Shown: positions 2 to 48,777 of the stretch, piece by piece
How the letters are laid out: every line of letters begins with the position of its first letter
Position numbering within the stretch: the stretch's first letter is position 1
NCBI GenBank assembly: GCA_963827655.1
Contig: CAWHCF010000023.1
Coordinates: 384,001-448,000, forward strand
Source: an uncultured Acidobacteriota bacterium
GTDB lineage: Bacteria; Acidobacteriota; UBA6911
Reading direction: 5' to 3'
Length of the DNA stretch: 64,000 nucleotides
Program-made: the position numbers and the translations under genes
Notes under the pieces: model-generated
The model's database searches: none
Seen by the model: the letters and a program-made list of their open reading frames with translations, nothing else
Told to the model about the DNA's origin: nothing

Positions 2-310
2 CAGGTGGTTTCGTTTCTACAATCCAATTCCAGCCTGAGCCGGCGGATGGTGCCGGAGCTTCCCTATATTCTGGCTGAGGCGTATTACGCAGTGACGTAC
101 GAAAAAGCGCGAACGCTCGAGGATATCCTGGTGCGCCGCACACGCGTGGCACTCCTGGATCCTGGGCGCGGGAGAGGCTGTGCGCGGGAGGTCGCAACGC
201 TGGTCGCGCCCGAGCTCAATTGGAGCGCAGAGGACATCGAACGGCAGATCGAACTTTATGAGAGAGCCATCAAGACCCGGTTCTGTGGACCGGAAGACCT
301 CATCGATTGA
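2..310 (+). CDS. glpD: Glycerol-3-phosphate dehydrogenase, C-terminal fragment (truncated by window edge)
   Basis: AEAYYAVTYEKARTLEDILVRRTR and ELNWS match the DAO_C C-terminal domain of FAD-dependent GlpD. Confidence 0.8.
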   Translation, partial: QVVSFLQSNSSLSRRMVPELPYILAEAYYAVTYEKARTLEDILVRRTRVALLDPGRGRGCAREVATLVAPELNWSAEDIERQIELYERAIKTRFCGPEDLID

Positions 311-409
311 CGATTGACGATTGACGATTAACAATCGATTGACGATTGACGATTGACGATTAACAATGGCAGCTATCAGATGTTCAATCGTCAATGTCAA
401 TCGTAAATC
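302..409. repeat. Heptamer (CGATTGA)n tandem repeat with inverted (CAATCGT)n arm
   Basis: 32-bp unit ATCGATTGACGATTGACGATTGACGATTAACA duplicated (302-333, 334-365), followed by the inverted arm CAATCGTCAATGTCAATCGTAAATC. Confidence 0.9.
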
Positions 410-24496: not shown

Positions 24497-25114
24497 TTAC
24501 CGCGGCGGCCGGGCGGCGCGCTCCTGTCTGCGCAGCGCTTTCTCCAGCAACTCCTTCAAGCGCCCCCGAGCGCGGAAAACCTTGAGTCGGGCCGCCTGCT
24601 CCGTGCATTTCAGTACCCGCGCGATCCGCTCGTACGGAACGTCTTCGAGGTCCCGCAGCACGATCGCCATCCTTTGCTGTTCCGTGAGCTGGTTCAGCAT
24701 CTTGTGCAAGAGGGCGTGCAGTTCCTTCTGCTCATCGGGAGACGCAGGGGCTATTTCGCTTTGGTTAATCAGCTTTTCTATGCTCTCCGACTCCTCGAGG
24801 CTCAGCTCGGTGAAAGTCCGGGTCTTGCGTCGCCGGGCGCGGCGCAGCTCGTCGTAGCACTGGTTAACCGCGATCCGATAGAGCCACGGGAAAAAAGGTC
24901 GATCGAGGTCGAACTTCGGAAGCGAGAAGTAGACCTTGGCGAAGATCTTTTGGGCTATGTCCTCGACGTCGTTGGGACGGCCGGTACTGTGGTAGATCAG
25001 GTTGAAGACGGTCTGCTGATACTTCCGAACCAGCTCTTCGAAAGCCCGCTCGTCGCCAGCCCGGACACGACGCACAAGATCGCGGTCGTCTTCGGCGTAC
25101 GCTTCTCTCCCCAC
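24497..25114 (-). CDS. ECF RNA polymerase sigma factor
   Basis: Region 2 (AFEELVRKY, WLYRIAVN) and region 4 helix-turn-helix. Confidence 0.92.
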   Translation of the reverse strand: MGREAYAEDDRDLVRRVRAGDERAFEELVRKYQQTVFNLIYHSTGRPNDVEDIAQKIFAKVYFSLPKFDLDRPFFPWLYRIAVNQCYDELRRARRRKTRTFTELSLEESESIEKLINQSEIAPASPDEQKELHALLHKMLNQLTEQQRMAIVLRDLEDVPYERIARVLKCTEQAARLKVFRARGRLKELLEKALRRQERAARPPR

Positions 25115-25125
25115 GAGTGGGAATC

Positions 25126-26310: not shown

Positions 26311-26374
26311 ACAGATCAACCATGGAGGGCAAAGATGCAAAGAAACGCTTCCTCAATCTTTCTCATCTCTCTGC

Positions 26375-28591
26375 TCAGGGATTATTGCGGGCTGCGGCAC
26401 TCAAAACACGATAGTGGGACTTGCCGGTCAGCACCTGTTTCACATAACCGCGGGTTTCACTGAAGGGAATCCGCTCGACAAATTCCACCATGTCGACGTT
26501 TCCCAGTTCTTGCAGCCAGCGATCCACTCGGTTTTCACCGGCGTTGTAGGCTGCCAGGGCCAGTTCCTCCCGGTGTCCAAACTGCCGCAGAAGCGCGGCC
26601 AGGTGGCGCGTGCCCAGAACGATGTTCGTCTCCGGCCGGAACAGCTTCGGCGTGCTGTACCGAGGGATCTTGGCTTCGCGAGCCAGCTGCCTTCCCGTCG
26701 TTGGAAGAACCTGCATTAAACCCCGCGCGTTAGCAGGAGAGCGCGCCTCTTCCTTGAAGGCCGATTCCTGCCGGATAACCCCCAGAATCAGGGCGGGATC
26801 CAGACCGTTCTTTCTCGCCTGCGCAGAGATAACTTCCCAATGCCGGACCGGAAAGAATAGCCGCCACACTTCGTCAGGAAGCGCCTCGTGCGGTCGAACG
26901 TCATAATTAGGAAATGCTCTCCGGAGCGTGACAATGACGCTGTAAAAGTCCTGCTTGCTTTCGTGAATCCGCGACATGACAAAGCTCAGCGCCCTCTCCT
27001 CGGGAAACCGCCGCATGGCGCTGCGCAGCTCCGTCAGTGCCAGATCGGGCAAATCGGCTACCACCAGCTGGCGCGCGCGTTCGATGAGCCGGGTAACCGG
27101 CATCGGAGGTTCTTGAATAGAAGTTTCGGTCAGGCGCAGGCCATCGAGAGTACGGGACACCTGGTCGAAGCTGATCCCCTGGTAGTCCTGAGGGGCCGAA
27201 GGCTTCTGCTTTTTCAATCCGCTTTCGGCTTCGGCCGCTCGCTGGCCGTAGTAACTGTTGTTGGAGAGCGCCCGCGCCCGCCGGTACAAGTAAGCGGCGT
27301 GGCCGCGATCGCCCAGTCTTTCGTAACATCGCCCCATCCAGTAGATCGTAGCGCCGGCGGAGTCGGCCTCCGGATAAGTGAAGAGAGAGTTCCAGAAGGC
27401 GTGGAGCGCCTCCGCGTAACGGCCTTCGGTGTATGCGAAAAGCGCTATTTTCCAGCGAGCGCGCTCTGCATGCTCTCCTGTGGGGAATTTTCCGGCCATC
27501 GTCCGGTAGGCCTGGTCGGCCCGAGCCGGCTGATTCTTGACGTCGAAATAGGTTGCGACCGAGTGGAGAATTTTTTCGGTGAAAGAAGATTGGGGATATC
27601 GCTCGAGCGCCAGGTCCCTGATCGCGAGAAAGGAGGCCTCTTCCTGCAGCCTGCGATAAGCGAGCGCCTGAAAATACAAAGATTGCGCGTGAAGAGACCC
27701 ATTGTCGTCTTTGACACTCTGAAGATGCGAGAGCGCTGCCCTGGAATGGCCAAGATTGTGCTCGGTCTCTCCACGCAACAGATTCAACTTCTCGACGCTG
27801 GACCGATCGGGCGCCGGGACAGCGTTCAGCTTCAGCAACTGGGCGCGCGCTTCGGCGTTCTTGCCGGAACGGATGAGATTCTCAGCCCTACGCAGCAGAG
27901 GCTTGAAGTTCGCCGCGGGAGAAACGGCCTCGGGCGCAAGTGCCATAAGCCGCTCTAAGGCGAGGGCCGCGGTCTCGGAGGCAACGAAATCAGTGTAGAC
28001 TCGAAGGTACAGGTCGATCGCTCCCTGGCGCATCCCGGCATCTTCCTGCGCCCTCCCGCGGAAATAGAGGATCTCCGCACTCTGCTCCAGCCCGGGATTG
28101 TTCAGCACCGCCAACGCTGCCCGTGGATCATGCAGTTTGAGCCAGGCCTGGCATTCTCCGAGGATCGCCTCGTGGAGTTGCGATGATTGCGGGTGGTCTT
28201 TTTGCAGAAGTCGAAAATCCCTCAGCGCTTCTTCGTCTCGATCCAGAGCCAGGTTCGTTTTCGCCCGGTAAAGAAGAAAGAAGTCGGCCACGGCTGTGGC
28301 ATTGGCTGAGGCTGTGTCCGGAAAGGCTGCAAGGGCGGGCGCGTAGCGTTCATCAAGGTAATGATCTACCGCGCGTTTTAGAGCCTTCAGCGAATTCTCC
28401 ACCCGCGGTGGATATTTCGGGAGCAGTGTATCGAGCGCCGCCGGCAGAGAAGCGCCTTCACTGTGTGGATTTCCCGCCGGACCCAGGGGGGATGCAAGGA
28501 GCGAAGCGATTAGAAAAAGAACCGGTGCGGCTCGAATGAGATATCTTAGTGGCGTGCAGTTCGTGGTGGCTTCAGCTGGTCGACGGGGCAC
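26375..28591 (-). CDS. slt: Soluble lytic murein transglycosylase (Slt70-like) with TPR repeats
   Basis: IRQESAF, ARGLMQ, AAYNAG and ETRGYV. Confidence 0.9.
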   Translation of the reverse strand: MPRRPAEATTNCTPLRYLIRAAPVLFLIASLLASPLGPAGNPHSEGASLPAALDTLLPKYPPRVENSLKALKRAVDHYLDERYAPALAAFPDTASANATAVADFFLLYRAKTNLALDRDEEALRDFRLLQKDHPQSSQLHEAILGECQAWLKLHDPRAALAVLNNPGLEQSAEILYFRGRAQEDAGMRQGAIDLYLRVYTDFVASETAALALERLMALAPEAVSPAANFKPLLRRAENLIRSGKNAEARAQLLKLNAVPAPDRSSVEKLNLLRGETEHNLGHSRAALSHLQSVKDDNGSLHAQSLYFQALAYRRLQEEASFLAIRDLALERYPQSSFTEKILHSVATYFDVKNQPARADQAYRTMAGKFPTGEHAERARWKIALFAYTEGRYAEALHAFWNSLFTYPEADSAGATIYWMGRCYERLGDRGHAAYLYRRARALSNNSYYGQRAAEAESGLKKQKPSAPQDYQGISFDQVSRTLDGLRLTETSIQEPPMPVTRLIERARQLVVADLPDLALTELRSAMRRFPEERALSFVMSRIHESKQDFYSVIVTLRRAFPNYDVRPHEALPDEVWRLFFPVRHWEVISAQARKNGLDPALILGVIRQESAFKEEARSPANARGLMQVLPTTGRQLAREAKIPRYSTPKLFRPETNIVLGTRHLAALLRQFGHREELALAAYNAGENRVDRWLQELGNVDMVEFVERIPFSETRGYVKQVLTGKSHYRVLSAAARNNP

Positions 28592-28865
28592 TTCTCTCTA
28601 ACTTTCAGCGCGTGGTCCGGGACGGTCGCTTCCCGGTTTCGCGGAGTCATTCTCCCCGAGAATTCATTTCAAACGCTTCTCGACACCGATGGGGAGGCTG
28701 GCCTCTCGCACATTTCGCGGCTTCGGTCAAATATCTCGCTATAGAAAGGACCTGGCAAGATCGCCGGCACAGTTTTTCATTATACTAACGACGAAGACAC
28801 GAAGACACTAAAGAAACGCGAAGCATGGCGGAACGTAGCGCGAAGCCAGGGCGAGTTCGAGAAGT

Positions 28866-29735
28866 CTACAGCCGGCGCGCGGAGGCCTCGATGACCTTGG
28901 TGAGTTTTTCGATTCCTTTGGAGAGGGACGCAAACGAAGGCTGCGATAGATTCTGCACTGAAACGCTCGACGTCGTGGACTGGCTGTACATCCCTTTGAG
29001 CTGGGTATGAAGATCGGTGGCCAGCTCTCGAAGATTCTCGATCCCCGCAAGTCCAAGATCATCGAACTGGTTTCCTTTTCCGAGGTTTTGGTCAAGACGC
29101 CGGTCGACGAAGGCCAGCGATTCATCCTGGCGTATCTTCTTGGCGAGGTCGCGAATCTCCTGGGCTTTCGTTGCAATGTCTTGCTTATTGATCTGCTTCC
29201 CTGCCTGAAGATCGGTCAGCATGGCCTGGAGCTGATCGACCGCGGAAACCATCTGCGAACTCAAGGTGAGCGGGGAGCGCAGAGTCAACTTCATCAGCTC
29301 GGGTGTGACCAAGGGCTCGGTGTTTCGATAGAAGCGACTAAAGTACAGTCCATTCAACATGTACATAGTGCGCATGCGCCAGTAGTAGTTCTGCCAGTCG
29401 TAATAAGAATCCAGGGTCGTGAAAGACGTTCCCTGCAAATTCGGCGCACTGGAGGCATACCCTCCGCCGCTGGGAGCAACGGAAGCAGGAGCGCCGGAGT
29501 AGCCCCGCGACCGGCTCGAGGAGTCGATACCTCCCATCGGGGCAGAGCGCGACGAAATGGAAGCACCGCCGCTCATTCCACCCATGTTTCCAGGAGCGCT
29601 GCGACCGGCCCCAGTATCGCCCGAGGACTGACGATTGGTCTCAGCCGCGGGAGCACTCGCCTCCTGGGCGAAACCCGAGAGGCTAGAAAGCAGCAGCAGG
29701 GTTGCAAAGCCAAACAAAACACGGCGCTTAGCCAT
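28866..29735 (-). CDS. Secreted hypothetical protein (Gly/Ser-rich linker plus helical C-domain)
   Basis: 289-aa ORF with signal peptide and GAGGAG RBS. Confidence 0.75.
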   Translation of the reverse strand: MAKRRVLFGFATLLLLSSLSGFAQEASAPAAETNRQSSGDTGAGRSAPGNMGGMSGGASISSRSAPMGGIDSSSRSRGYSGAPASVAPSGGGYASSAPNLQGTSFTTLDSYYDWQNYYWRMRTMYMLNGLYFSRFYRNTEPLVTPELMKLTLRSPLTLSSQMVSAVDQLQAMLTDLQAGKQINKQDIATKAQEIRDLAKKIRQDESLAFVDRRLDQNLGKGNQFDDLGLAGIENLRELATDLHTQLKGMYSQSTTSSVSVQNLSQPSFASLSKGIEKLTKVIEASARRL

Positions 29736-30079: not shown

Positions 30080-32159
30080 ATGACTGCACTATCGCGGTTC
30101 TGGCTGCCGGGTATTCTGGCGCTTGCATTCGCGCTGCGCCTGGCTTATCTCATTGAACTCAGGCACACGCCATTTTTCGATCAGCTTATCCTTGATCTGG
30201 CCGCGTACGATTCCTGGGCGCAAGATATTGCCCGGGGTGATTGGTTTGGATCCGAAGTCTTCTACCAGGATCCGCTCTATCCCTATTTCCTCGCGACTCT
30301 CTACTGGATTCTCGGCCACCGCTTGACCATTGTCTACCTGATCCAGATCGTGCTCGGGGTGATCACATGTTATCTCGTCTACTGGATCGGACGCAGAGTG
30401 TTTTCGCCCGTCGCCGGCCTGCTGGCGGCAGGAATAGCGGCAACGTACAAGCCCTGGATTTTTTACGACGTCCAGGTGGAGAAGTCCTTTCTGGCGGTGT
30501 TTCTCATCTGCGCCTCATGTGCGCTGCTGCTGCGGGGCGCTTGGCTCCTGGCAGGTCTTGCCCTGGGTCTGGCGGTACTGGTCCGAGGGAACTATCTGCT
30601 GCTCCTCCCATTCGTATTGTCGGGAATTCTGTTCTTGATACGAGAATGACACCTACACCGTCCGCATCCGGCGAGCGATGTCTTATGGTCTGGGCGTCGC
30701 TTCCATCCTGGTCGTCACACTGGTTCGAAACTTTACGGTGGCAGGTGATTGGGTGTTGACTACCTCTCAGGTCGGTCAGAACTTCTTCATAGGCAACAAT
30801 CCCGACAACCTGACCGGCATGTACCGGCCACCTGAATTCGTTCGCTCGGATCCGAAATTCGAACGGCTGGATTTCGCCCGCGAGGCCGAACGGCTCGCCG
30901 GCAGGAGACTCAAGCCTTCGGAAGTGTCCGCGTTCTGGTTCAATCGAGCGGTTGAATTCATCGCCGCGCGGCCGGTCGATTTTCTAAAACTGTTGGCACA
31001 GAAAACCGCGCTCTTCTGGAACCATTATGAAATCCCGGACAATCTGGATAGCTATTTTTTCGAGCGCTACTCGCGGGTAATGAGGCTCTGGCTACCCGGC
31101 TTTGGTGTTGTCGCGCCGCTGGGCGCGTTGGGGATGGTGCTGTGCCTTCCTCAATGGCGGCGTCTCTGGCCCCTCTACTTCTTCGCGGCCGGATACTTCC
31201 TTTCAATCATCTTTTTCTATATTTTTGCCCGCTATCGCCTTCCGGTAGTACCGTTCATGATGGTCTTTGCCGGGCAGGCTATTTACCAGCTCTATTCCTG
31301 GATTCGCGGCCGAAACGTCCGTCAATTGATCTACTCGGCTGCGTTACTGTCGCTATTCTCACTGGGAGTTCACCTCCCGCTTGTCAATGCCTACAATCCT
31401 GCCGCGGTAAACAACCTGGGGGCCGTTCTCTTGCGCCTGGGCGAGATCGAAGAGGCGGAATCGCTCTTCCGGCAGGTTATCGCGCGGCGGCCCGACTTTG
31501 CGGACGGTCGCAACAATCTTGGAGTAACGCTGTTACGGAAAGGGGATATAGGCCAAGGCCTGGATCAGATCCGTGAGGCTATCCGGTTGAAACCCCGCCA
31601 CCCCAACAGCTACGTGAATCTAGGACAGGCGCTGCTGCTGCAGCGGGATACCGGAGGAGCGATGGACGCCTTCGTTACGGCCAGCCGTCTCGACCCCGAG
31701 AGTGCCGAGGCTGTCGCCGGCATGGGACTGGTGCATCGCGCCAACGGAGACCAGGCCGCGGCGCTCGAGGCATTCCGCAAGGCGCTGGACCTCGATCCGC
31801 AGTCAGGCGAAATCCATAACAATCTGGCGATAGTTCTGCTGGCTCGCGGCGAGTTGATGGAGGCGCTCAAGCATTTTGAGGCCGCCATTCAGTCAAGACC
31901 GAGGTTTTCCGAGGCGCACTACAACCGTGGGATCTGCCTGGAGCGTCTTGGAAAAAAGGAGGAAGCTGCCGCGGCTTATCGTGCGGCGCTGGCTGCGCGT
32001 TCAGATTACGCCGAGGCATATAACAATCTGGGCAATCTTCTGGCTGAAAGCGGCGACCGGCGCGGGGCGGTCGAAGCCTACGAAAACTTCCTTCGATATT
32101 GGCAGGGTGATGAAGGTGTGCGCCAGGCCGTACGCGAGGAAATCAACAAACTGAAATGA
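30080..32159 (+). CDS. GT-C fold (PMT/GT39-like) membrane glycosyltransferase fused to TPR repeats; +1 frameshift at ~30647
   Basis: DLAAYDSWA, FYQDPLYPYFL, GQNFFIGNNP, RYRLP and C-terminal TPRs; removing one base joins ORFs 30080..30649 and 30678..32159. Confidence 0.8.
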
Positions 32160-32178
32160 CCTCCGTTAAGATTCTTGC

Positions 32179-34131
32179 GTGGCTTCGCGTCTCAGCGTCT
32201 TCGCGGTTGGTTTTGTTCCTTCAGGATATCGAATGCCTGTGCTGCGCGCCGAGCTGCTGAAAGACCTCCTGCTCTGTGGGGCTATCGTCTGGCTTCTCTG
32301 GGTGCCGCTGGGACGCTGGGCGCTGAGCCGTATCGGAAGAGGAAATCTTCCTGATCCGCAAGCCCTCGCCCTGCCTCTGGGAATGGGCGCCTGGGGTTAT
32401 CTGATTTTGATCCTCGGCCTGGCCGGTGCGCTCTACAAGACCGTCCTGATTCTCATCGCCGCATTGCTGTTCCTCACCCTGAGGCTGCATCGTCACTGGA
32501 AGCCGGTCAACCCGGAACTTGCAACAGCGCAGCTCTCGCGATTCGAGCGAATATTCGTCCTGGTCTTCACCGCGATTTCAGCAGCCTATTCGGGGCTGGT
32601 TCTCGCATCGGCGCTCGCCCCCGAGGTCGCCTTCGATGCGCTCAATGTGCACCTGCCATATGCTCGCGACGCCGCAGCCTCACATCGGATAAGCTTCGCG
32701 CCCAACAACTGGAACAGCTCGATGCCGGCCCTGCCGTTGATGTCTTATATCACCGCCTTTCTGATCTCAGGACTGCCGCTGGCGAAGCTGTTCAATGTCG
32801 TCTGCTACCTGGCCTCCGGCGGCGTAACCTACTGGTTTGCCCGCCGATGGTGGAGTCCGCTTCACGGCGCGGCCGCCGCGCTTCTCGTCTGGAGTTCTCC
32901 CGTCGCCTTGTACGAGGCTACGACCGCCCTCGTCGACCTTCCACTTACACTGTACTCGGCCGTCGCCGTGTTTTCGGTTCTCGAGTGGACACGCCGCCAG
33001 GAGTCGTCGTATCTCTGGCTCTCCGCGGCAACGCTGGGGCTGGCGTTGAGCTGCAAGTATCATGCGGCGCTCTGGTTCATTCCCATTCTCTTCATCCTCG
33101 CCTGGCACTGTCTGCGGGGGGGCACGCAAACGCCGCGGCAGTTCGCCCGGCTGGCTCTGGCTTACTCGCTGATTGCCGCAGCCGTTTTCCTTCCCTGGCT
33201 GGTCCGCACCTGGTACTACACGGGAAATCCAGTGTTCCCCGTAGCGAATTCCTTCTTCGCCAGCCCATACTTCACGCCGGCGATGGAGAAAGCGGCTCTT
33301 GCGATGTACGACAACGAAGGTGTGGGCCGTTCCTGGCAGGCGCTCGCTCAGCTTCCCTGGACTGTCACTTTTCATCCCGGTCCATTTCGTGGCAACCTCG
33401 GAGTGCTCTTTCTTCCGGGAGTTGTTCTGGCTCTCGTCCGCGGGAAAACCCCTCAGATCCGTTTCGGATTGGCGCTGGCCGGAGCATACTTTTATCTCTG
33501 GGCCCTCACGCTGCAGGAAATCCGCTACCTGCTGCCCCTGGCCCCCCTCCTGTCGGTGTTGACATCGTTCGGACTCCTGGGAAACAACCCGGCGACCGCG
33601 CAGTCCAGGCCAAGACTCGCGTACGCCGGTCTTGTCCTGATTCTGTGCGCATCCGTCATGAGCTTCCCCTCGGTTTATCCACTCTGGACGAAAGAATGGA
33701 CGTACTGGCACAGTTATCAATCGCCGCTCTCCTATCTCCTGGGCCGAGAGACCCGGCAGGACTTCATGCGCCGGGACGTCCCCTCGGTCTACGTTTACGA
33801 CTTCATCAACGAAAAGCTCGCGGCGCCGGACCGGATCTTGTTGTTGAACGACGCCTCGCAGTTCTACTCCCGGGTCCCAACGCTGTACTCGTATACCGTG
33901 GAGGGGGAAGAAATCTTGCTGCAGGAAACAGCGGACGGCGTCGTGCGCAAGCTGAAGGAATCGGGTATTACCCACGTGCTGCTGAACTACAACGACATTG
34001 CTCCATTGCCCGGAGTGGTTCCCAGGCAGGGTGTATATTTCTTCCTGGACCGCACGTTCCAGGAAAAGCACCTGCGAGCTATTTATTCCAGCAACAATGT
34101 AGTCTTGTATCGATTGGCGAATGACGATTGA
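32179..34131 (+). CDS. GT39/ArnT-like membrane glycosyltransferase
   Basis: Multi-TM protein; DALNVHLPYA, PWLVRTWYYTGNPVFP and RYLLP. Confidence 0.8.
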   Translation: MASRLSVFAVGFVPSGYRMPVLRAELLKDLLLCGAIVWLLWVPLGRWALSRIGRGNLPDPQALALPLGMGAWGYLILILGLAGALYKTVLILIAALLFLTLRLHRHWKPVNPELATAQLSRFERIFVLVFTAISAAYSGLVLASALAPEVAFDALNVHLPYARDAAASHRISFAPNNWNSSMPALPLMSYITAFLISGLPLAKLFNVVCYLASGGVTYWFARRWWSPLHGAAAALLVWSSPVALYEATTALVDLPLTLYSAVAVFSVLEWTRRQESSYLWLSAATLGLALSCKYHAALWFIPILFILAWHCLRGGTQTPRQFARLALAYSLIAAAVFLPWLVRTWYYTGNPVFPVANSFFASPYFTPAMEKAALAMYDNEGVGRSWQALAQLPWTVTFHPGPFRGNLGVLFLPGVVLALVRGKTPQIRFGLALAGAYFYLWALTLQEIRYLLPLAPLLSVLTSFGLLGNNPATAQSRPRLAYAGLVLILCASVMSFPSVYPLWTKEWTYWHSYQSPLSYLLGRETRQDFMRRDVPSVYVYDFINEKLAAPDRILLLNDASQFYSRVPTLYSYTVEGEEILLQETADGVVRKLKESGITHVLLNYNDIAPLPGVVPRQGVYFFLDRTFQEKHLRAIYSSNNVVLYRLANDD

Positions 34132-34249
34132 CGATTGGCAGACTCAGGATCACGAAACCCTTGGTGGGCGCCGGCCGCTTGTGGCATAATCCGACTATCC
34201 CTGGTCTCAATCTCAGCCAACGACATTGCCTGTTGAACGGAGGAAGTTC

Positions 34250-37200
34250 ATGCGCAAGATGCTCATTCTCGCCGCAATGTTTGCCGCCGCGGCGTCATGC
34301 TACGCCCAGACGCCTGACGGCCGCATCTCAGGCATCGTGACCGACTCGACGGGTGCTGTCGTCCCTGGGGTCGAGATCGAGGTGACAAGCGAGGATACGG
34401 GCAACCGGGTCTCGTCTATCTCCGACGACCAGGGGCGGTATATCGTTCCCCGCGTACCGCCCGGGCGCTGGCGCGTGACGGCCAAGCTGACCGGCTTCCG
34501 CGGTTACCAGCGCACGCCGGTCGTGGTCGGAACGGCCGAGCATCTCGAGATTGACATCCGGCTCGAGGTCGGCGAAGTGACCGAGACCGTGACGGTCAGC
34601 GGCGCGGCTCCACTCCTCGAGACCAACACCTCCGACATCAGCCAGCTCATCGAGTCGAAGAACGTGACCGACCTCCCGCTCAACGGGCGGCGCGCAATCA
34701 GCATCGCCGCCGTGGTGCCGGCCACCGTCTGGGTAAACTACTCCGGCAACGCCAAGCCGAACTTCAGCCTCGCCGGTGGGCGGACCCAGAGCCAGGTCTT
34801 CTGGATCGACGGCGGCAACGGCCAGAACATGAGGCTCGGCGTCGGCCAGATCGACAGCGACCCGCCGGTCGAAGTCGTGCGCGAGTTCCGCATCCTCTCG
34901 AACAACTACTCGGCCGAGTACGGCGGCTCGGCCGGAGGGCTGATCATCCTGACGACCAAGTCAGGAACCAACGAGTTCCACGGCAGCCTCTTCGAATACC
35001 TGCGCAACGACGCCTTCGACGCGGCCAACTTCTTTGCGCCCATCGACTCGACGACAGGCGACAAAAGCAAGGCCCCGCTCCGGTACAACCTGTTCGGCGG
35101 GACCGCCGGCGGCCCGATCGTGCGCAACCGAACCCACTTCTTTGCGGGGTACGAAGGGACGCGCCAACGCGTCGGGAGCACCGAGATCCTGACTGTCCCC
35201 ACGGCGCTCGAACGCGCCGGCGACTTTTCCCAGACCCGCAACGCTGCGGGGGCTGTGATACCGATCTACGATCCCTCGACGACCCGCACCGAAGCGGGCC
35301 GGACCGTTCGTGACCGCTTCCCGGACAACCGCATTCCCCAGGGGCGGCTCGACCCGGTTGCGCTCAAGATCCTTAACTTTTACCCGGTTCCGAACCGGCC
35401 CGCGACAAATCTCGCCGGGGCCAACAACTTCGCCGGCAACTGGACCGAGCGGTTCGACCGGGACAATGTCACGGCTCGGGTCGACCACGTCCTTTCGGAC
35501 AAGGACAAGGTCTACGCCCGCTACATCTTCAACGAAGATCCGCTGTCGAACACCACGGTGCTCCCGGACCCGCGCACGAACACGCGCAACTTCAGCGACC
35601 GGTTCCAGCACAACATCCTGGGCACATGGAGCCGGACCCTGTCGCCCCGCTGGCTGAACGAGCTGCGCTACACCTTCGCGACCCGCCGGTTCCACAACCG
35701 CAGCGAGGGGCTCGAAGGCAACTGGGATCAGGAGCTCGGCCTGAGCGGCATCTCCGGCGAGGCCTTCCCGCAGTTCACGGTGGCGGGAATCGCGACACTG
35801 GGATCGGGCACCCACGAGCGTCGACAGTTCCCGATTCGGCAGCACCAGCTGATCGAGAGCGTCACGGTGATCCAAGGCAATCATGCGCTGAAGTTCGGGA
35901 CCGAGTTGCGGAAGTCGACGAACTTCGAGGTCCTTCGCACTTCGATCTCGGGCCAGTTCAACTTCGGGGCCCAGCCCACGGGGTTGCCGGGAACCGGCGG
36001 AACCGGGTTTGGCTTCGCCAGCCTGCTCGTCGGGTTTCCGAACTCGTTTACGCTGCGCGAGACCGAGCCCCTGATCCGCGATAGCTGGTATCTGTCCGGG
36101 TATGTCCAGGACGACTGGAAGGTGAGACCGAACCTGACGCTCAACCTCGGGCTGCGATGGGAGACCGACACACCGATGGTCGATCGGAACCAGCGCATGA
36201 ACGGCTTCGATGCGGTGCCGATCAACCCGGTATCGGGCACGCCCGGCGTCGTTCGCTTCGCCGGACAGGATGGCTGGCCGAACCGGCTGGCTGATCCCGA
36301 CTGGAACAACTTCGGTCCGCGGTTCGGACTGGCCTGGCGGCCGTTCGGCCGCCAGAAGACCGTGATCCGGGCCGGATTCGGAGTCTTCTTCGCGCATCCC
36401 TACGACGCCGGCGTTCCCAACCAGGCCTCGCTCGGGTTCGAGAAGTCCGCCAGCCTCCAGACGCCGGACAACGGCATCACCGCGCCCTTTCTGCTCGCCA
36501 ACGGAGTGCCGCCGGTCCAGCTCACCGGCGCCGAGCGGAATGCGGGCTTCGGCGCCGTGGAGGTCGGGAGGCCGACGACCACCAATGTCACTTTTTTCGA
36601 GCCGGGCCGAAGGACTGGTTACTCGCAGCAGTTCAACCTGGGGGTGCAACACGAGCTGTTCGGCGTTCTGGTCGAGGCGGGCTATCTTGGGAATCTTTCG
36701 CGGAAGCTCGCCAACGACAATGTGACGCTTAACCAGATTCCTACCGAGAGGATGGGACCGGCAGCAACCCAGCGCGACCGGCCTTTCCCACAGTTTTCGA
36801 ACGTGACGCTGCAGCGGCCGAGCTTCGCCGTGACGGACTACCACGCCGGGTTTGCAAAAGTCGAGCGGCGGTTCTCTGGCGGAGTAAGCTTCCTCGCGAG
36901 CTACACCTGGGCGAAGAACGTCGGCAACGCGGGTCCCGGCAGCGATGGCCTCGGCGATACCCAGCCGTACCAGGACTACTACAACCGGCGCCTGGATAAG
37001 GGCCCGAGCGAGCTCGACATCAACCACAGGTTCACCTGGAGCTCGGTCTACGAGCTTCCGTTCGGGGCCGGCCGCCGCTGGCTGGCCACCAATCCCCTTC
37101 GGCACCTGGTCGGCGGCTGGTCGCTCGGCTCGATTGCCGTGCTTCAGAGCGCGCCGCCGATGTCGCTCTGGACACAGACCAACACGACCAGCGCGTTCTC

Positions 37201-37555
37201 GGCCGGAGCGCAGCGGGTGAATCTCCTGCGCGACCCCAACCTGCCGGCTTCGGAACGCACCGTTGATCGCTGGTTCGACACCGACGCGGTCGTCGCGCCC
37301 CCAGCTTTCACCTTCGGAAGCGCCGGCAACGGCATCGTCCGGGCCGACGGGAAGGTGAACTTCGATTTCTCGCTGATCAAGAACTTCTCGTTTTCGGAGC
37401 AACGCGTCGTTCAGGTGCGGGTTGAAACGTTCAATTCGTTCAATCACCCGAACTTCGATCTGCCCGGGCGAGCTCTCGGCGGACCGGGTTTCGGAGTGAT
37501 CTCAAGCGCCGACCCGGGCCGAATCATCCAGTTCGGCGTGCGCGTGGCTTTTTAA
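34250..37555 (+). CDS. TonB-dependent receptor (Oar-like) with carboxypeptidase-regulatory-like N-domain
   Basis: ISGIVTDSTGAVVPG, LPLNGR, KSGTNEFHG, YVQDDWKV, LNLGLRW, NNFGPR and terminal Phe. Confidence 0.93.
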   Translation: MRKMLILAAMFAAAASCYAQTPDGRISGIVTDSTGAVVPGVEIEVTSEDTGNRVSSISDDQGRYIVPRVPPGRWRVTAKLTGFRGYQRTPVVVGTAEHLEIDIRLEVGEVTETVTVSGAAPLLETNTSDISQLIESKNVTDLPLNGRRAISIAAVVPATVWVNYSGNAKPNFSLAGGRTQSQVFWIDGGNGQNMRLGVGQIDSDPPVEVVREFRILSNNYSAEYGGSAGGLIILTTKSGTNEFHGSLFEYLRNDAFDAANFFAPIDSTTGDKSKAPLRYNLFGGTAGGPIVRNRTHFFAGYEGTRQRVGSTEILTVPTALERAGDFSQTRNAAGAVIPIYDPSTTRTEAGRTVRDRFPDNRIPQGRLDPVALKILNFYPVPNRPATNLAGANNFAGNWTERFDRDNVTARVDHVLSDKDKVYARYIFNEDPLSNTTVLPDPRTNTRNFSDRFQHNILGTWSRTLSPRWLNELRYTFATRRFHNRSEGLEGNWDQELGLSGISGEAFPQFTVAGIATLGSGTHERRQFPIRQHQLIESVTVIQGNHALKFGTELRKSTNFEVLRTSISGQFNFGAQPTGLPGTGGTGFGFASLLVGFPNSFTLRETEPLIRDSWYLSGYVQDDWKVRPNLTLNLGLRWETDTPMVDRNQRMNGFDAVPINPVSGTPGVVRFAGQDGWPNRLADPDWNNFGPRFGLAWRPFGRQKTVIRAGFGVFFAHPYDAGVPNQASLGFEKSASLQTPDNGITAPFLLANGVPPVQLTGAERNAGFGAVEVGRPTTTNVTFFEPGRRTGYSQQFNLGVQHELFGVLVEAGYLGNLSRKLANDNVTLNQIPTERMGPAATQRDRPFPQFSNVTLQRPSFAVTDYHAGFAKVERRFSGGVSFLASYTWAKNVGNAGPGSDGLGDTQPYQDYYNRRLDKGPSELDINHRFTWSSVYELPFGAGRRWLATNPLRHLVGGWSLGSIAVLQSAPPMSLWTQTNTTSAFSAGAQRVNLLRDPNLPASERTVDRWFDTDAVVAPPAFTFGSAGNGIVRADGKVNFDFSLIKNFSFSEQRVVQVRVETFNSFNHPNFDLPGRALGGPGFGVISSADPGRIIQFGVRVAF

Positions 37556-37814
37556 AACACGGCCTCGGGGAATGCCGCATTCCGGACTCTAACAGAAGAA
37601 TCGGCAACACAGTTGCCTCGATCAGCCAGGCGGATTCAAAGCTGGCCCTTGGGCCTCCCCACACCGGGTCCGATCGACAAGACCCGGTCATCACGGTGCC
37701 AATTCAACTGTTACCACTCCACCGGTCATCGAATGAATTCACGACTCACGACTGTGCAGATCGGTGAACAGCGACCGGGGATTCAATCGTCAATCGTCAA
37801 TTGAGATTAATCCG

Positions 37815-38381
37815 GTGACGAAAGAGCATTACACCTGGTTCGACCGCTGGGTCGCCGGCATGCGCTACCGCGCGGCCGAGAAATACATTACACCGGACAG
37901 CAGGGTGTGTGATGTCGGCTGCGGAGTCGATGCGCTCTTCCTCAAGAAACTCGTCCCGCTAACTCGATGCCGGGTTGGGCTCGACTACCAGGAAATCACG
38001 GAAAAGGTTCCGGGCACGGAGTTTTTCAAGGTTGATGTCACAGGGGCATTTCCGCTGCGGGATGCCGCTTTCGATCACGTGACCTTGCTGGCGGTAATCG
38101 AGCATTTGACAGACCCGAGTCTGGTTTTCAAAGAAACCTACCGCGTGCTGGCGCCCGGAGGCTCGCTGATCGTGACCTGGCCTCACGCCTGGGTAGATCA
38201 GATTCTGATTGTGCTTTGGAAAATCGGCCTGGTGAGCCCGACCACCGAGTTCCACAAACATCAGCCCCGCAAGCCCGCCGCTTATTGTACGAAGCTGCTG
38301 CGAGACCTGGGCTTTGTCGAGATCAGGCACAGCACTTTCGAGTTCGGTCTGAACAACCTGCTGGTAGCCGTCAAGCCGTGA
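37815..38381 (+). CDS. Class I SAM-dependent methyltransferase
   Basis: VCDVGCG, LAVIEH and RVLAPGG; type commonly found beside glycosyltransferases. Confidence 0.9.
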   Translation: MTKEHYTWFDRWVAGMRYRAAEKYITPDSRVCDVGCGVDALFLKKLVPLTRCRVGLDYQEITEKVPGTEFFKVDVTGAFPLRDAAFDHVTLLAVIEHLTDPSLVFKETYRVLAPGGSLIVTWPHAWVDQILIVLWKIGLVSPTTEFHKHQPRKPAAYCTKLLRDLGFVEIRHSTFEFGLNNLLVAVKP

Positions 38382-38750
38382 TCGATCACGCCGGTGCCGT
38401 CAGCTGCGAATTTCATTGCGCGGCACCAGCGGCGGCACTCTTGGAGGGCGCGCTTCGCTCCAGGCGAAGATTGCTTCGCCTTGCATCAGCACGGCTTTGA
38501 CATCGACAACGATGCCTACTTAGGGCTTGCGTTGAACTCTACTCGTGGCACATTCTGGCCTCTTTTGACTCCGGTATTCAGGCCTTTGCATCGGCACAAC
38601 GAAGCTCTGCGCTGGAGATCGTGCCGGTCAAGTGAAGGGCAACCGGATCCCCGGCTTGGGTGGGCCAGACCAGCGCGTCTCGATCCGTCGGTGGGCCGCC
38701 GCAATCGTCGGGACTTCTATCCGCCCGAAGCCGCAAAAATCGCCCGTTCC

Positions 38751-40370
38751 CTATCGGTTTCCCACGCGCTGAATTGACGGACCGCTGGAGGTGAAAGATA
38801 ACACCACTCCGACTCGATTCTGCACGGCGGTGGCCTGGTCCGGTGCGGCGCGTGGGAAGAGAAACAATTCCTCGAAGGCACGTTGAAGGGGTGTGGACGG
38901 AAAAACCAACTGAGGATAGATTCCATGCACATGCCACAGCGGAAGAATTGCCTGGGGATCCGGAGTGACCACGGCGATTCGTTGCCCATAGGGAAGCTGG
39001 TCCAGGGCCTGGTGATACGGTAGCCATTGCGCGCGGTAAAAACCGGCATCCTGGCGGCGTGTGTCCACGTAGAAACCGATAGCCGCGCCGTGCAATATCA
39101 GAACAACCAGCGCGCCCACCCAGAATCGACGGCGCTCGCTGTTCCTGGTCACACGCGCAACCCACTCCCAGATCAGGTATCCCATAAAGATTGAGGCCAG
39201 AGCGAGCGGGATGAAATAGTAATGAAAGCTCGCCCGGTGGATCAGGACCGGCGCCATCAGCACCCAGTAGGCAGCGAGCCAGGCGATTCGGCTGCGACTC
39301 CCCGGGTGTATCCTGAGATACATGATCAGTCCCAGCAAGGCGCATACAAGAAAGAGGCATTCTGCCAGGGCAAACATCCCCTCATAGGTGGAACCCATGG
39401 TGTAAAGCTTCAGAAAAACCGGCACTCGGCTCGCGAGGTAGGCCGGGGTGCGTTCGATCGCCTTGAGATAGTCAGGCGCAATCGCACCGGGCGCATCGGA
39501 AGCCGCCGAGTCGCGACCCGGCATATACTCGTATGAGAAGCGGGCAAAGACGGGCCAGTTCATCTGCAGACTTCCCACCCACAGAGCCAAGCCGGCGCCG
39601 GCGGCGAACAGAGCGGCCATCGGCAGGCGGCTCCTCAGCCGGCGAGGGATCGCGTCGTCCCGGGCGTGTTTTTCGAAAAGGATCTGAAAGAAAACAAAAG
39701 GAATCAGCAGCCCTGCCAGGTGAATCTTCGTGTAAAAGGCCGCCGCCGCGCACAACGCGGCGGAAACTGCGGACAGGTAAGCCTTGCCGCGTTCCCCGGC
39801 CGCCGCGTGTTCCTGTAAATTCCAGACTGAGATGATTGTTCCCAGGAAAAAAACCACCAGGAGAGGTTCAGGGGAGATCCGGCTCAGGAAGAAAAGAGTG
39901 GGAAACGAGGTCGCATAGGCCAGCACTGCCAGCAGGCAGGCCGACCGGTCAGGCAATAGTCTGCGCGCGAAACGATACAACACGTAAAAAGACAAGACAT
40001 GCAGGGCGGTCACGGCGACTTCACAGATGAAAAAGAGCCAGTGGATGTTCTTCGCGATGAAAGGTTCAAAAGCGACACTCTCGCCAAAAAACGAATGCCC
40101 AACGTGAAACCCGCGCAGGATAAGGTGCACGAAGAGCTGCAGAGTCAACCCTGGATGTCCGAAGGATGAGCGATCGGCACCGAAAAAGTGAACGGCGGCG
40201 CCGAAATAGAATCCCCCCGGATCCCCGTGATGCCAGAACGGAACATCGAAGACGTAGTTGGTCCAGAAACCACACGGTGCCAGATAACTGGTTATGGCAG
40301 AGGAAACCAGCAGAGTGGCGGTCAGCGCCGGCCAGAAGCCGCGCGCAGGACCAGCGTCTTTAGATCTCAT
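38751..40370 (-). CDS. Multi-pass membrane protein, probable GT-C glycosyltransferase
   Basis: About 12 hydrophobic segments; DP..Y...A and GHPG loop, PE and TK motifs, HYYFIP. Confidence 0.65.
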   Translation of the reverse strand: MRSKDAGPARGFWPALTATLLVSSAITSYLAPCGFWTNYVFDVPFWHHGDPGGFYFGAAVHFFGADRSSFGHPGLTLQLFVHLILRGFHVGHSFFGESVAFEPFIAKNIHWLFFICEVAVTALHVLSFYVLYRFARRLLPDRSACLLAVLAYATSFPTLFFLSRISPEPLLVVFFLGTIISVWNLQEHAAAGERGKAYLSAVSAALCAAAAFYTKIHLAGLLIPFVFFQILFEKHARDDAIPRRLRSRLPMAALFAAGAGLALWVGSLQMNWPVFARFSYEYMPGRDSAASDAPGAIAPDYLKAIERTPAYLASRVPVFLKLYTMGSTYEGMFALAECLFLVCALLGLIMYLRIHPGSRSRIAWLAAYWVLMAPVLIHRASFHYYFIPLALASIFMGYLIWEWVARVTRNSERRRFWVGALVVLILHGAAIGFYVDTRRQDAGFYRAQWLPYHQALDQLPYGQRIAVVTPDPQAILPLWHVHGIYPQLVFPSTPLQRAFEELFLFPRAAPDQATAVQNRVGVVLSFTSSGPSIQRVGNR

Positions 40371-40426
40371 GTTTTGGACTATTCGTGGTTAATGCTGTGA
40401 AACAAGCCCACCACGAAGACGCGAAG

Positions 40427-41530
40427 CTATCGGAGCTTGATCGTGTCGATCGTGACGATATCCCAGTACGAGTACAGCTGATTTGTGCTGAAGTTCTTGA
40501 GGAACGGCTTCGCCCACTGGAGGATCTGCGTGAATGCGTAGCCTGGAACCGCGTCCGGGTGAGGAATTCGATTGCTCCAGTAGGCGCGAATAAAAACCGA
40601 ATTCTCGTGCAGGGGCAGTTCCCGGGCATTCTCCAGGAACTGTCCCCAACCCAGGTTGCGCACCAGATACTGCTCAACGTTGGAGGTGTAAAAGACCGTC
40701 ACTTTCTCGTCCCGTTCTTTCAAGAACCGGCCGATTTCCCTCAACGAGTGCGATCCCGCGAAGTCTCCGACTACAGGAATGATTCGATTCTCTTCCTGCA
40801 TTCGTTTCAGGTACCTGAACTCTTGCGCGCTGTTCAGAAAATTCTGTTTCCGCCCGTCGAGGTCGCTTTCCAGCAGAAACTCGCCGTAGGTCGGCACCGG
40901 AATATAGTCGTACTTGATGGAGAGTCCTCGCAGAGAGAATGCCCTGTGAATCTTGTCAATGGTGGCCATGTCCTGGTCGGTCAAATTCAACCGGCAGGCA
41001 TTCTTGAGGAACAGGCGAATGCGGGCTTGATTCCTCGAGTACAGGATGGAGTCGGGGCTGGCGGTGCGAAAATACTCGACCAGATCATCGACCGTGTATC
41101 CGTCCTTCGGCAGTTTGTTGCCGTGCATGGGACGACTCAGGAGCATCGAGAGATACTCTCGCCGGTCGCGCGCGTAGTGGAACAACGCCTTGAACAGGAG
41201 ATGCTCGAGGAAGTTCTGCCGCCGAATATCGATGATGAATGCATAACGCGGTTTGAGCTTGGCAATGTAAGTGAAGTTCTGGTTTGGCCCGACGCCCAGG
41301 TAAACACCGCCCTGGATTCCAAGCTCCCGCAGCTTCCCAAGCGGATGCAAGTAGGAGGCTTCGTTGGAAACATAGTTGTCGTTCCAGAAATATCCACTCT
41401 CCTCATTGACACGCTGGATCAGTTGAGCGAATTGGCTCGCCGTGAAGGGAGGGGCCTCGTGTTCCGAGGACAGGACCGGTAGCGTTAGGAGAGCCAGGAT
41501 CCAAAGGAGCCCGGCACGGGAGAATTTCAT
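40427..41530 (-). CDS. Secreted conserved hypothetical protein (LIC_10091-like)
   Basis: Signal peptide; DNYVSNE, GVYLGVGPNQNFTYIA and FYTSNVEQYL. Confidence 0.65.
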   Translation of the reverse strand: MKFSRAGLLWILALLTLPVLSSEHEAPPFTASQFAQLIQRVNEESGYFWNDNYVSNEASYLHPLGKLRELGIQGGVYLGVGPNQNFTYIAKLKPRYAFIIDIRRQNFLEHLLFKALFHYARDRREYLSMLLSRPMHGNKLPKDGYTVDDLVEYFRTASPDSILYSRNQARIRLFLKNACRLNLTDQDMATIDKIHRAFSLRGLSIKYDYIPVPTYGEFLLESDLDGRKQNFLNSAQEFRYLKRMQEENRIIPVVGDFAGSHSLREIGRFLKERDEKVTVFYTSNVEQYLVRNLGWGQFLENARELPLHENSVFIRAYWSNRIPHPDAVPGYAFTQILQWAKPFLKNFSTNQLYSYWDIVTIDTIKLR

Positions 41531-41554
41531 CTATGAGGTTTTACCAGGAAAATT

Positions 41555-41679
41555 GGTGACAGGCTACGCTTTTCCCCATTTCAATGCCGCACAGAAGGAC
41601 TTCAGCGAAAGGCCACGCATTCAGTTTAGCCGGCCCTCAGGGTGACCGGTTGAAATTGGGAAAAGCGTAGCCTGTCACC
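41555..41679. repeat. Long inverted repeat (REP/MITE-like)
   Basis: 30-bp arms at 41555-41584 and 41650-41679, 29/30 complementary. Confidence 0.85.
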
Positions 41680-41709
41680 TTGTAATGATGTAGCCTTCTG
41701 AAGTCTACG

Positions 41710-42351
41710 ATGCGCATTCCACTTCACACGCGGGCCCTGAAAGTTGCGGCATTAATCGTGGCTCTTCTGGTCGCTGCTTGCGCCCGGAAGCCGGCCGAGG
41801 AGAAGGCAAAGCTCGACCCCCTGGTCGAAGAAAGGAGGCAAAGGGACCTTGCTTTCAAATCCGGTCCCGAATCCCCCCTCCGCGACGAGGACAAGTCGCG
41901 CTTTGTGGCGCTGAACTACTACGACGCCAACCCTGAATTGCGTTTCCAGGCTGTCCTGCATCGGCATCCGACGCCGCAAACCATACGGATAGCAACCAAT
42001 ACCACTGAAGAACGATATGCTCTGCGCTACGGCTATTTCGAGTTTCAGGTCGAAGGCCAAACCTGCAGATTGCAGGTCTATCGGATGCTCGATGACCCGC
42101 CGCCGGGCCAGGCAATGCTATTTGTGCCCTTCCGTGATCAAACTTCGGGGCGGGAAAGCTATGGAGGCGGACGATACATCGACCTGCGTGAGAATACCTC
42201 GGGGATTTATGACCTCGATTTCAACCGTGCCTACAATCCCTCCTGCGCCTATGGAAAGGACTACAGCTGTCCGGTTCCACCGAGAGAGAACACGCTCGCT
42301 GTTCCCATCCGAGCCGGTGAGAAGAAGTACTCGCTTGCGGAAGTCCACTAA
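41710..42351 (+). CDS. DUF1684 lipoprotein
   Basis: Lipobox VAAC; FRDQTSG.ESYGGGRY, DFNRAYNPSCAY and IRAGEK. Confidence 0.92.
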   Translation: MRIPLHTRALKVAALIVALLVAACARKPAEEKAKLDPLVEERRQRDLAFKSGPESPLRDEDKSRFVALNYYDANPELRFQAVLHRHPTPQTIRIATNTTEERYALRYGYFEFQVEGQTCRLQVYRMLDDPPPGQAMLFVPFRDQTSGRESYGGGRYIDLRENTSGIYDLDFNRAYNPSCAYGKDYSCPVPPRENTLAVPIRAGEKKYSLAEVH

Positions 42352-42356
42352 CCTTC

Positions 42357-42409
42357 CGATTTACGATTGACGATTGACGATTGACGATTTATTGACGATT
42401 GACGATTGA
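42357..42409. repeat. Heptamer (CGATTGA)n tandem repeat
   Basis: Same unit as 302-365. Confidence 0.9.
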
Positions 42410-43046
42410 AGTGCAAATAGACAACCAAACCAGCGCCCTGCTCGTCATCGACATCCAGAAGGACTTCTGCGACCCCGATTTTGCCTGCGGCAAATCAGGG
42501 CGAGACCTGAGTCCGATTCATGACATGGTTGCGAAGCGGCTTCTTCCGTTTTTGCAGCAGACCCGCGCGGCCAGCATCCTGACCGTCTATTTGGCTGCCC
42601 AATACCCGATGGGAAAGTTCTCGGTGGATGGCCTGGCTGAACTCTGCCTCGAGGGAAGTCCCGGGGCCGAGTTGTATCTGATCCAGCCGGACGCAAATTC
42701 CACCCGCGAGCGAATCTTCTTCAAGTCCGAGCTGAACGCCTTCAGCAATCCGGAGCTTCACTCTTGCCTTGCGGGCGAAAGAATCGAGCAGATTCTGATC
42801 GCCGGGGTTGCGACGGACAAGTGCGTCCGCGCGACTGTGCTGGCAGCGAGATCGATGGGATATCGGGTGATCGTGCTCTCCGACCTGGTAGCCGCAGGCA
42901 CCCACCGCCGGCGCGAGCACGACGAGACTCTGGGCTACCTGGCGGCTCAGCCTGGAATCGGCGTGCTTTCTTCCGCCGAGATTCGGTTTGAGTTGGACGG
43001 TCGCAGCTTCCCGGGGAAGCGTCCACGAAGCGCGATCTTGGGTTGA
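42399..43046 (+). CDS. Isochorismatase-family cysteine hydrolase (GTG 42411 may be the true start)
   Basis: ALLVIDIQKDF, K..LNAF and GVATDKCV. Confidence 0.88.
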   Translation: MTIEVQIDNQTSALLVIDIQKDFCDPDFACGKSGRDLSPIHDMVAKRLLPFLQQTRAASILTVYLAAQYPMGKFSVDGLAELCLEGSPGAELYLIQPDANSTRERIFFKSELNAFSNPELHSCLAGERIEQILIAGVATDKCVRATVLAARSMGYRVIVLSDLVAAGTHRRREHDETLGYLAAQPGIGVLSSAEIRFELDGRSFPGKRPRSAILG

Positions 43047-48645: not shown

Positions 48646-48777
48646 ATTGCGGATTGCGGATTGCAGATTGCGGATTAGCCGATTGGATTGCGGATTTGGA
48701 CCAGCGCGATCCAAGAACGATTTGGTCTTTTAACCATGAATCTTTAATCCGCAATCCGCAATCCGAAATCTGCAATC
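48646..48777. repeat. Heptamer palindrome (GATTGCG)n ... (CGCAATC)n
   Basis: Tandem ATTGCGG units followed by inverted AATCCGC units between fadN and fadA. Confidence 0.9.

Follow-up and report, generated by a model that had tools for sequence, protein, structure and literature searches.

Can short palindromic repeats take up genes without a recombinase? The question is raised by a locus in the genome of an uncultured Acidobacteriota bacterium (GTDB lineage UBA6911; NCBI GenBank assembly GCA_963827655.1), where a gene encoding a large outer-membrane receptor lies between two short, mutually inverted arms of a heptamer repeat with the unit GACGATT. The stretch analysed, referred to as the window throughout, comprises 64,000 nucleotides (positions 384,001 to 448,000 of contig CAWHCF010000023.1, forward strand), and positions are counted from its first letter unless another contig or locus is named. 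An earlier note on this DNA suggested that the receptor gene had been captured inside one heptamer palindrome, which was split in the process, and that such palindromes may act as integron-like sites of gene uptake or recombination. If they did, genes could be acquired by a new route that needs no recombinase; the evidence argues against this. We consider it probable (at about 0.78) that the two arms belong, independently of each other, to a repeat family found throughout the genome, and that the lineage-specific receptor was not captured by them. The locus would then combine two separate and ordinary things, namely a lineage-specific receptor in an acidobacterium with over 100 receptors of this kind, and two copies of the heptamer family.

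The inverted pair around the receptor gene is real. The left arm, TGACGATTGACGATTG at 34122-34137, has its exact reverse complement, CAATCGTCAATCGTCA, at 37784-37799, and between them lies the receptor gene (34250..37555, plus strand; 1101 aa), for which the ATG at 34250 is the likely start, with a GGAGG 7 nt upstream. The left arm is part of a forward array (34111..34139, plus strand) of 2 degenerate units and 2.3 perfect TGACGAT units. This array covers the final four codons and the stop of a conserved anchor gene encoding a GT39/PMT-family glycosyltransferase (32179..34131, plus strand; Pfam PMT_2/PMT), whose TGA at 34129-34131 falls within the arm, as the earlier note had observed. Homology between this GT39 protein and its relatives stops at ...NNVVLYR(L/V), and the array encodes the tail ANDD-stop. 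The right arm is part of a reverse array (37782..37803, minus strand) of 2.7 units, and 15 nt past the arm is the GTG start of a class I S-adenosylmethionine-dependent methyltransferase of 188 aa (37815..38381, plus strand; Pfam Methyltransf_11). The start at 37815, likewise proposed earlier, is fixed by the lengths of its homologues (187-195 aa).

Neither arm has a significant local partner with which it would fold, as shown by z values of +0.37 (RNA) and +0.20 (DNA) for 34105-34235 around the left arm, and of +1.22 (RNA) and -0.62 (DNA) for 37725-37812 around the right arm. A heptamer TCACGAC, repeated 2.1 times at 37739-37753 and 30 nt upstream of the right arm, may be a forward arm that has diverged, or may have no connection with the arms; a TCAATCT word near 34208 is another possible remnant. 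Neither is significant.

How special is such a pair? Tandem Repeats Finder reports a period of 7 at 304-361, 34111-34137, 37783-37801, and 42357-42409, and the 14-mer (at most one mismatch) occurs 10 times in the window versus 0.03 times expected from 100 shuffles, an excess that arises because the motif is a repeat family, not because the receptor-flanking pair is special. In the whole genome (referred to as G000; 8.18 Mb, 59% GC, 53 contigs) we counted 398 (GACGATT)n arrays that span 14 nt or more and contain no more than one mismatch. A second family, (GCGGATT)n, contributes 170 arrays with 49 close pairs. The close pairs of the GACGATT family have a strict polarity, with 133 forward-then-reverse pairs less than 200 nt apart (median loop 29 nt) versus 3 in reverse-then-forward order. 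About a third of arrays are solo (118, consisting of 54 forward and 64 reverse). Genes were placed with a rough codon-usage gene caller (5719 genes, 78% coding), which gives exact stops and inexact starts; by this measure, only 3 of the 133 pairs and 20 of the 118 solo arrays lie inside predicted genes.

The arms are mostly 4-5 units long (a fifth unit is reached in 149 and a sixth in 19), with an enrichment of the variant unit TACGATT at the second (96/367) and third (112/315) positions. This pattern of arm length and variant units is not what free microsatellite slippage alone would give. Since 30 of the 34 loops of 60-700 nt are found nowhere else in the genome, the spreading unit is the arm and not the whole element. 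Three tandem GACGATT units are found 187 times in G000, 12, 8, 7, 4, and 1 times in five genomes of the same family, and not at all in 35 other relatives, while a reversed control pattern is absent from all genomes counted. Relatives have other heptamer units (e.g., GAAGCCG and GGTCATC). A different dispersed repeat family also appears to be common to G000 and the related genome G010, in which about 100 nt (L046:7259-7361) match more than 20 places in G000 at 77-84%.

The position of the arrays relative to genes is similarly regular. Among 185 sense arrays (those reading TGACGAT beside a gene end), 91 overlap the stop codon, and in 135 the first base is no more than 10 nt away from it. Read in this sense, the repeat supplies a TGA in each of the three frames, and it encodes the C-terminal residues of many proteins (e.g., ...DD-stop, ...VD-stop, and ...ID-stop). 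Among the solo arrays, 38 have a stop abutting their outer side and 4 have one abutting their inner side. The left arm at GT39 is in the standard position of the family, and the right arm belongs to a class of solo arrays (35/118) with the outer side facing the 5' end of a gene. The palindrome of adjacent arms at 303..409, read by the earlier note as an "empty" capture site, does exist (forward array 303-364, reverse array 384-409, 19 nt apart). The stop of the upstream open reading frame (ORF), at 308-310, lies inside its forward arm, and its predicted RNA hairpin has -39.6 kcal/mol (z -4.4; equalled by none of 200 shuffles).

The enclosed gene probably has a history of its own. By its predicted domains it encodes a TonB-dependent-receptor-like outer-membrane protein, consisting of a CarboxypepD_reg domain (PF13620, E 8.5e-18, residues 34-114) and a large OMP_b-brl_4 barrel (PF25183, E 5e-235, residues 243-1102; residues are numbered on a 1109-aa reading of the gene). 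A match to Plug (PF07715) is weak (E 9e-4, 20.1 bits, under the 23.9-bit cut-off). The receptor had appeared by eye to be richer than its neighbours in G+C at third codon positions (GC3), and the measured values agree (0.847 versus 0.66-0.73), placing it at the 99th percentile of the 3116 predicted genes of at least 900 nt. Ranked against 103 receptor paralogues (mean 0.766, maximum 0.878), it reaches only the 95th percentile. In the composition profile the GC plateau matches the receptor coding sequence, and the insert boundaries are not placed more finely.

High GC3 as a sign of high expression was rejected, as the 20 genes of highest GC3 in the genome mostly have accessory or defence functions (restriction-modification, TIR, ligase, and ABC-transporter genes among them) and are not housekeeping genes. 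The genes of most extreme GC3 (0.90-0.99; on contigs C22, C29, C35, and others) include those for two N6 DNA methylases, a ResIII helicase, a TIR-domain protein, and an ATP-dependent ligase, and these may belong to foreign islands or contaminating contigs. The lineages of the closest homologues were also ruled out as the donor of the high GC3, since their receptors have GC3 values of 0.65-0.78, like those of the neighbouring genes there.

The closest receptor paralogue in G000 itself is 47-48% identical (E 3e-250), and no homologue at E<=1e-250 was found in 50 genomes of the same family, with scoring limited to the 14 best candidates of each genome. Other families of the class do have homologues, with identities of 71% (G034), 69% (G033, partial), 61% (G039), and 55/53% (G030); the 71% figure, as well as the GC3 and the repeat-free flanks of locus L009, rests on G034, an unpublished genome. 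None of these homologues in other-family genomes shares a flanking gene with the window or has a flanking GACGATT repeat. In the public protein database, homologues are 97, 87, 88, 80, 73, 72, 71, and 71% identical, followed by others at about 61%. Because the receptor is absent after GT39 in relatives, has an odd GC3, and has its nearest homologues, among the reference genomes searched, in other families, we regard it as lineage-specific at this place; it was likely acquired horizontally, or at least has had a very patchy history.

Was it acquired at a palindrome? The comparison of this junction with its counterparts in related genomes, which the earlier note had proposed, bears on this directly. 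Synteny of 24497-29735, GT39, and 40427-42351 is kept in 8 genomes of the family, with GT39 orthologues of 51-58% identity (tblastn); a metagenome scan with GT39, over data from which very near records may be missing, yielded only relatives at 50-63%, and the protein database contains GT39 homologues at 95, 89, and 89%. The receptor does not follow GT39 in any of the 8 genomes, nor in the 6 metagenome loci that reach past the GT39 stop (L014, L015, L016, L018, L019, and L020; L017 ends within GT39). In 8 loci (G009, G005, G016, G014, G002, and G003, i.e., L001, L003, L004, L006, L007, and L008, plus the metagenome contigs L015 and L016), GT39 is translationally coupled to a conserved GT2 gene (253 aa), whose start codon overlaps the GT39 stop via ATGA, TGATG, or GTGA. 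It follows from this overlap that GT39-methyltransferase is not the ancestral junction, and that there was no spacer in which an "empty" palindrome could have resided. The absence of the receptor from relatives was borne out; in those compared, at genus distance or more, GT2 or nothing occupies the position. The proposal that GT39 and the methyltransferase would form a natural operon once the insert is removed does not fit the coupling of GT2 to GT39. No GT2 orthologue was found in the G000 assembly, which is 90% complete (best identity 29-30%). The receptor thus occupies the GT2 position, as a replacement at a junction without a spacer.

On the right-hand side of the locus, 5 of the 8 family genomes do have a methyltransferase-domain gene downstream of GT39, with 25-29% identity to the methyltransferase in the window, whose best match in 40 relatives is 38% and whose database homologues elsewhere are 55-65% identical; its close homologues in the database are at 98, 96, and 83%. 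(What seemed to be an N-terminal domain of the methyltransferase-like ORF in relatives proved to be the GT2 gene read out of frame.) Because the methyltransferase in the window is not a clear orthologue of the relatives' gene, the right arm may lie between two lineage-specific genes, and not at a border between foreign and native DNA. These genes belong to a variable block (30080..40370) between the conserved genes at 28866-29735 and 40427-41530, both on the minus strand. In the window, the block consists of seven ORFs, namely a PMT_2 fragment, a TPR gene, GT39, the receptor, the methyltransferase, a 127-aa ORF, and a second PMT-family gene on the minus strand. The gene content of this glycosyltransferase block differs between every relative examined: on contig C62 of G007 the two conserved genes that flank the block are about 675 nt apart without any block genes between them, while other family genomes have GT39 and GT2 with or without a methyltransferase-like gene. 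The other junctions of the variable block have no heptamer arrays.

An insertion of the receptor into the loop of a single palindrome after GT39, for example through illegitimate recombination where a cruciform or hairpin had broken, leaving the arms 3.6 kb apart, would account for exact 16-nt arms in the correct polarity around a gene that is lineage-specific and compositionally odd. Its high GC3 is compatible with a foreign origin because the genes of highest GC3 are mostly accessory or defence genes, and the loop lengths of the family do have a long tail (201, 298, 407, 623, and then 912, 1489, 2141, and 3642 nt). Against such a split, the overlap of the GT39 stop with the GT2 start in 8 loci would require an extra intermediate in which GT2 was lost and a palindrome gained, and the gene to the right of the arm is not clearly the one that relatives have there. 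The metagenomes also speak weakly against it. Parts of the stretch are contained in 20 runs from 18 studies, none with half or more of the sampled words, and contigs from 4 soil or rhizosphere runs (four studies) were compared over 31500-40500. In these, contig X1 (33955-34344, 9 differences) bridges the GT39 end, the arm, and the receptor start, and contig X2 (37672-37952) bridges the right junction; only filled junctions, and no true empty-site contig, were seen in the 4 runs. Contigs that seemed to skip about 3642 nt were rejected, as the shorter side is only 20-23 nt and the letters between the arms differ, which identifies them as other palindromes of the family. The two bridging contigs lend weak support to filled junctions in related strains, and one run may be the source of the assembly.

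The earlier note held that an arm orientation random with respect to accessory genes would refute capture. Among 11 pairs of neighbouring solo arrays separated by 1-6 kb, the order is forward-reverse in only 3; another 3 are reverse-forward, 2 forward-forward, and 3 reverse-reverse. The forward-reverse order is therefore not in excess at this distance, the outcome that was to refute capture, and this also tells against a split palindrome. A weak trend remains when both families are pooled (discussed below). Other brackets enclose a cyclophilin gene and a 3-keto-disaccharide hydrolase-domain (glycoside-hydrolase-like) gene, with GC3 at the 8th and 22nd percentiles, and an alpha/beta hydrolase gene bracketed on contig C26 is at the 97th percentile.

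The most telling bracket encloses atpD. On contig C34 (L021:3600-5170), a forward arm overlaps the atpG stop, followed by atpD and a five-unit reverse arm 5 nt before the atpC start. The identity of atpD is 85-91% within the family versus 78-82% to other families, and that of atpG 68-79% versus 54-60%, a pattern of vertical inheritance; the atpG-atpD adjacency is kept in the relatives compared. The atpG-atpD spacer of G000 contains a four-unit forward arm and a one-unit reverse remnant, that of G007 contains a small complete palindrome with none in its atpD-atpC spacer, and G010 has arrays in neither spacer. The arms therefore appear, grow, and shrink in place around atpD, which cannot be a cassette, and this bracket cannot have come from an insertion. 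(A second, divergent ATP synthase gamma/beta pair, at C53:12747-15057 of G000, is 39% and 67% identical to the main copies, and is also present in G006, G035, and G012.) Gain and loss of arrays is seen at other spacers as well: the spacer between the aminotransferase and SLT genes is 34 nt in G000, whereas that between their orthologues in G007 contains a GCGGATT palindrome, and the spacer between the C26 alpha/beta hydrolase and Rieske genes is 30 nt without an array in G007 and 323 nt with a reverse arm in G000. The latter two genes thus already adjoin in G007 without arrays, a further point against a palindrome split by insertion. Taken together, we regard capture of the receptor in this manner as very unlikely.

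Could the arms be the terminal inverted repeats of a transposon, or of an element resembling a miniature inverted-repeat transposable element (MITE), with the receptor as a passenger? Identical inverted termini around one gene would fit this, but the receptor is the sole gene enclosed and no transposase lies inside; the other brackets hold atpD, the hydrolase, the cyclophilin, and the glycoside-hydrolase-like gene; the sequences just outside the arms (...ggcgaa on the left, attgag... on the right) form no direct repeat; and receptor homologues elsewhere have no arms. The only match to a Y1 transposase (PF01797) in the genome is on C35, with no GACGATT array within 15 kb. We therefore find this origin extremely improbable. 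The absence of a local integrase stated in the earlier note holds, as a Pfam scan of the predicted genes of 22-50 kb in the window found no integrase or transposase, no genome-wide search for integron integrases having been made, and the window has no tRNA gene. The other brackets examined enclose neither a transposase nor a nuclease. With atpD among the enclosed genes, no integrase nearby, and no orientation excess at 1-6 kb, the integron-like role proposed for the heptamer palindromes is not supported.

We favour an explanation in which the arms are independent members of the (GACGATT)n family, which would colonise the spacers between genes. The usual form would be a forward array at or on the upstream stop codon, a unique loop, and a reverse array, together able to form a hairpin; arms would lengthen, shorten, and decay in place, and copying would probably proceed by slipped-strand or template-switch events. 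At this locus, a forward solo array would lie on the GT39 stop and a reverse solo array in the next spacer, and the receptor, probably horizontally acquired, would have arrived separately from the repeats in place of GT2. As for their role, by analogy the arrays most likely would act as RNA hairpins at 3' ends, or else represent neutral structure-forming repeats.

Several observations weigh against this explanation. The two arms match exactly over 16 nt, inverted, and have the forward-then-reverse polarity that real palindromes show; at a detected length of 22 nt (25th percentile of solo arrays), each is unusually short; they stand at both edges of DNA without a counterpart after GT39 in relatives; and the genomes compared at this junction are all at other-genus distance or more. 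When both repeat families are pooled, forward-reverse order accounts for 8 of 19 consecutive solo pairs at 0.9-6 kb (binomial P 0.077) and for 14 of 27 at 0.2-6 kb (P 0.0024), so that some pairing of arrays does exist beyond 200 nt, with a weak trend at most at the scale of genes. Further, the GC3-rich hydrolase bracketed on C26 is 90% identical in G007 and 79% in G010, and then at most 54% elsewhere.

A rival reading is a true long-range pair that involves no capture, with the arms acting either as portable homology for exchange between strains, or by pairing in a polycistronic RNA for its processing. The pooled excess at 0.9-6 kb and the equal shortness of the two arms are in its favour, as is the presence of the hydrolase in G007 and G010, both of which are among the five (of 40) relatives with GACGATT arrays. 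However, the hydrolase gene is not flanked by arrays in either of these genomes, the identity pattern of atpD is vertical, and arms of 16-35 nt are short, RecA-dependent exchange being inefficient over such homology. At least part of the excess is explained by the stop-codon rule, by which a forward-reverse pair can enclose no gene at all and a reverse-forward pair must enclose at least two, and the numbers of enclosed genes fit this geometry. We thus consider a long-range pair quite unlikely. A bolder version, to which we give very little credence, is that the dispersed arrays are portable recombination boundaries and that strains swap DNA between forward and reverse arrays, so that the receptor and the C26 hydrolase would be exchanged segments and the 8/19 excess the footprint of the exchange.

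Other features of the window fit the description of the repeat family given above or concern the surroundings of the locus. A solo forward (GACGATT)n array (42357..42411, plus strand) begins 6 nt past the stop of a DUF1684 gene (42351), and a palindrome of the second family (48646..48777), with a GCGGATT forward arm and an AATCCGC reverse arm, has a predicted fold of -63.5 kcal/mol (z -8.1). Around the receptor, an Rfam scan of 33900-38100 returned nothing at E<=1, a promoter scan of 33800-38100 found no promoter-like site, and the terminator-like sites in 33800-38100 number 4 versus 3.6 expected. Upstream of GT39, 30080-32159 encodes a 189-aa PMT_2 fragment and, after a gap of 28 nt, a 493-aa TPR protein, which look like either two genes or a single PMT-TPR gene that has been split; on the metagenome loci L018 and L019, GT39 is preceded by orthologues of the TPR part.

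How do these arrays compare with known systems? Like integron attC sites, the palindrome here is imperfect and lies beside an accessory gene; unlike them, it comes with no integrase (in 22-50 kb), no cassette array, and no attC architecture, and the genes bracketed by the arrays include atpD of a core operon. The REP/BIME elements (REPINs) are short extragenic hairpin repeats that occur in hundreds of copies, mostly downstream of genes, are copied together with their spacer, and are associated with RAYT proteins. The G000 arrays are likewise numerous, short, hairpin-forming, extragenic, and mostly downstream of genes, but their loops are unique (30/34) and no arrays flank the one Y1 transposase gene of the genome. 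We assign them to the dispersed intergenic tandem heptanucleotide repeats, a class of long simple sequence repeats. A full-text search found no literature on such heptamer repeats in Acidobacteria.

The part of the study by Rehm et al. (2015; PMC4692102) drawn on here describes about 190 intergenic sites of GGGAATC arrays per Xanthomonas genome, of which 70-75 are convergent inverted pairs able to form stem-loops, and GGGGA(C/T)T heptamer arrays in Nostoc. According to the same part of that source, the single or paired type of the Xanthomonas arrays is usually kept between species while their length varies, their function is not established, and a detailed literature on heptameric repeats does not exist. 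As far as these descriptions go, the G000 arrays resemble both in having 7-nt units in short tandem intergenic arrays, resemble those of Xanthomonas in their frequent convergent inverted pairs, and differ in that GACGATT and GCGGATT are not G-rich and lack quadruplex potential. The units GACGATT, GCGGATT, and CAGGATT of G000 share a GATT end with Nostoc GGGGATT and with the complement of Xanthomonas GGGAATC, an end that GAAGCCG and GGTCATC of the relatives do not have.

Another comparison is offered by the TAACTGA repeats of marine Beggiatoaceae, cyanobacteria, and Bacteroidetes, for which the corresponding part of MacGregor (2015; PMC4679880) reports about 170 intergenic sites of 2-6 copies in Beggiatoaceae, with stops in all three frames and 13 overlaps with an upstream stop. 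Those repeats are described there as almost all direct (one inverted pair), ending just before start codons, and they were proposed to be sites for a translational regulator. To the extent covered by that account, the G000 arrays are similar as intergenic heptamer arrays with a stop in three frames and overlaps with upstream stops, and dissimilar in being mostly inverted pairs anchored on stop codons. Their strict polarity (133 versus 3), arms of 4-5 units, and overlap of half of the sense arrays with stop codons go beyond what is described for Xanthomonas and Nostoc in the part of Rehm et al. (2015) considered here. Strict polarity, stop-codon anchoring, 4-5-unit arms, unique loops, and gain and loss in place between genomes are potentially useful for explaining this class of repeats.

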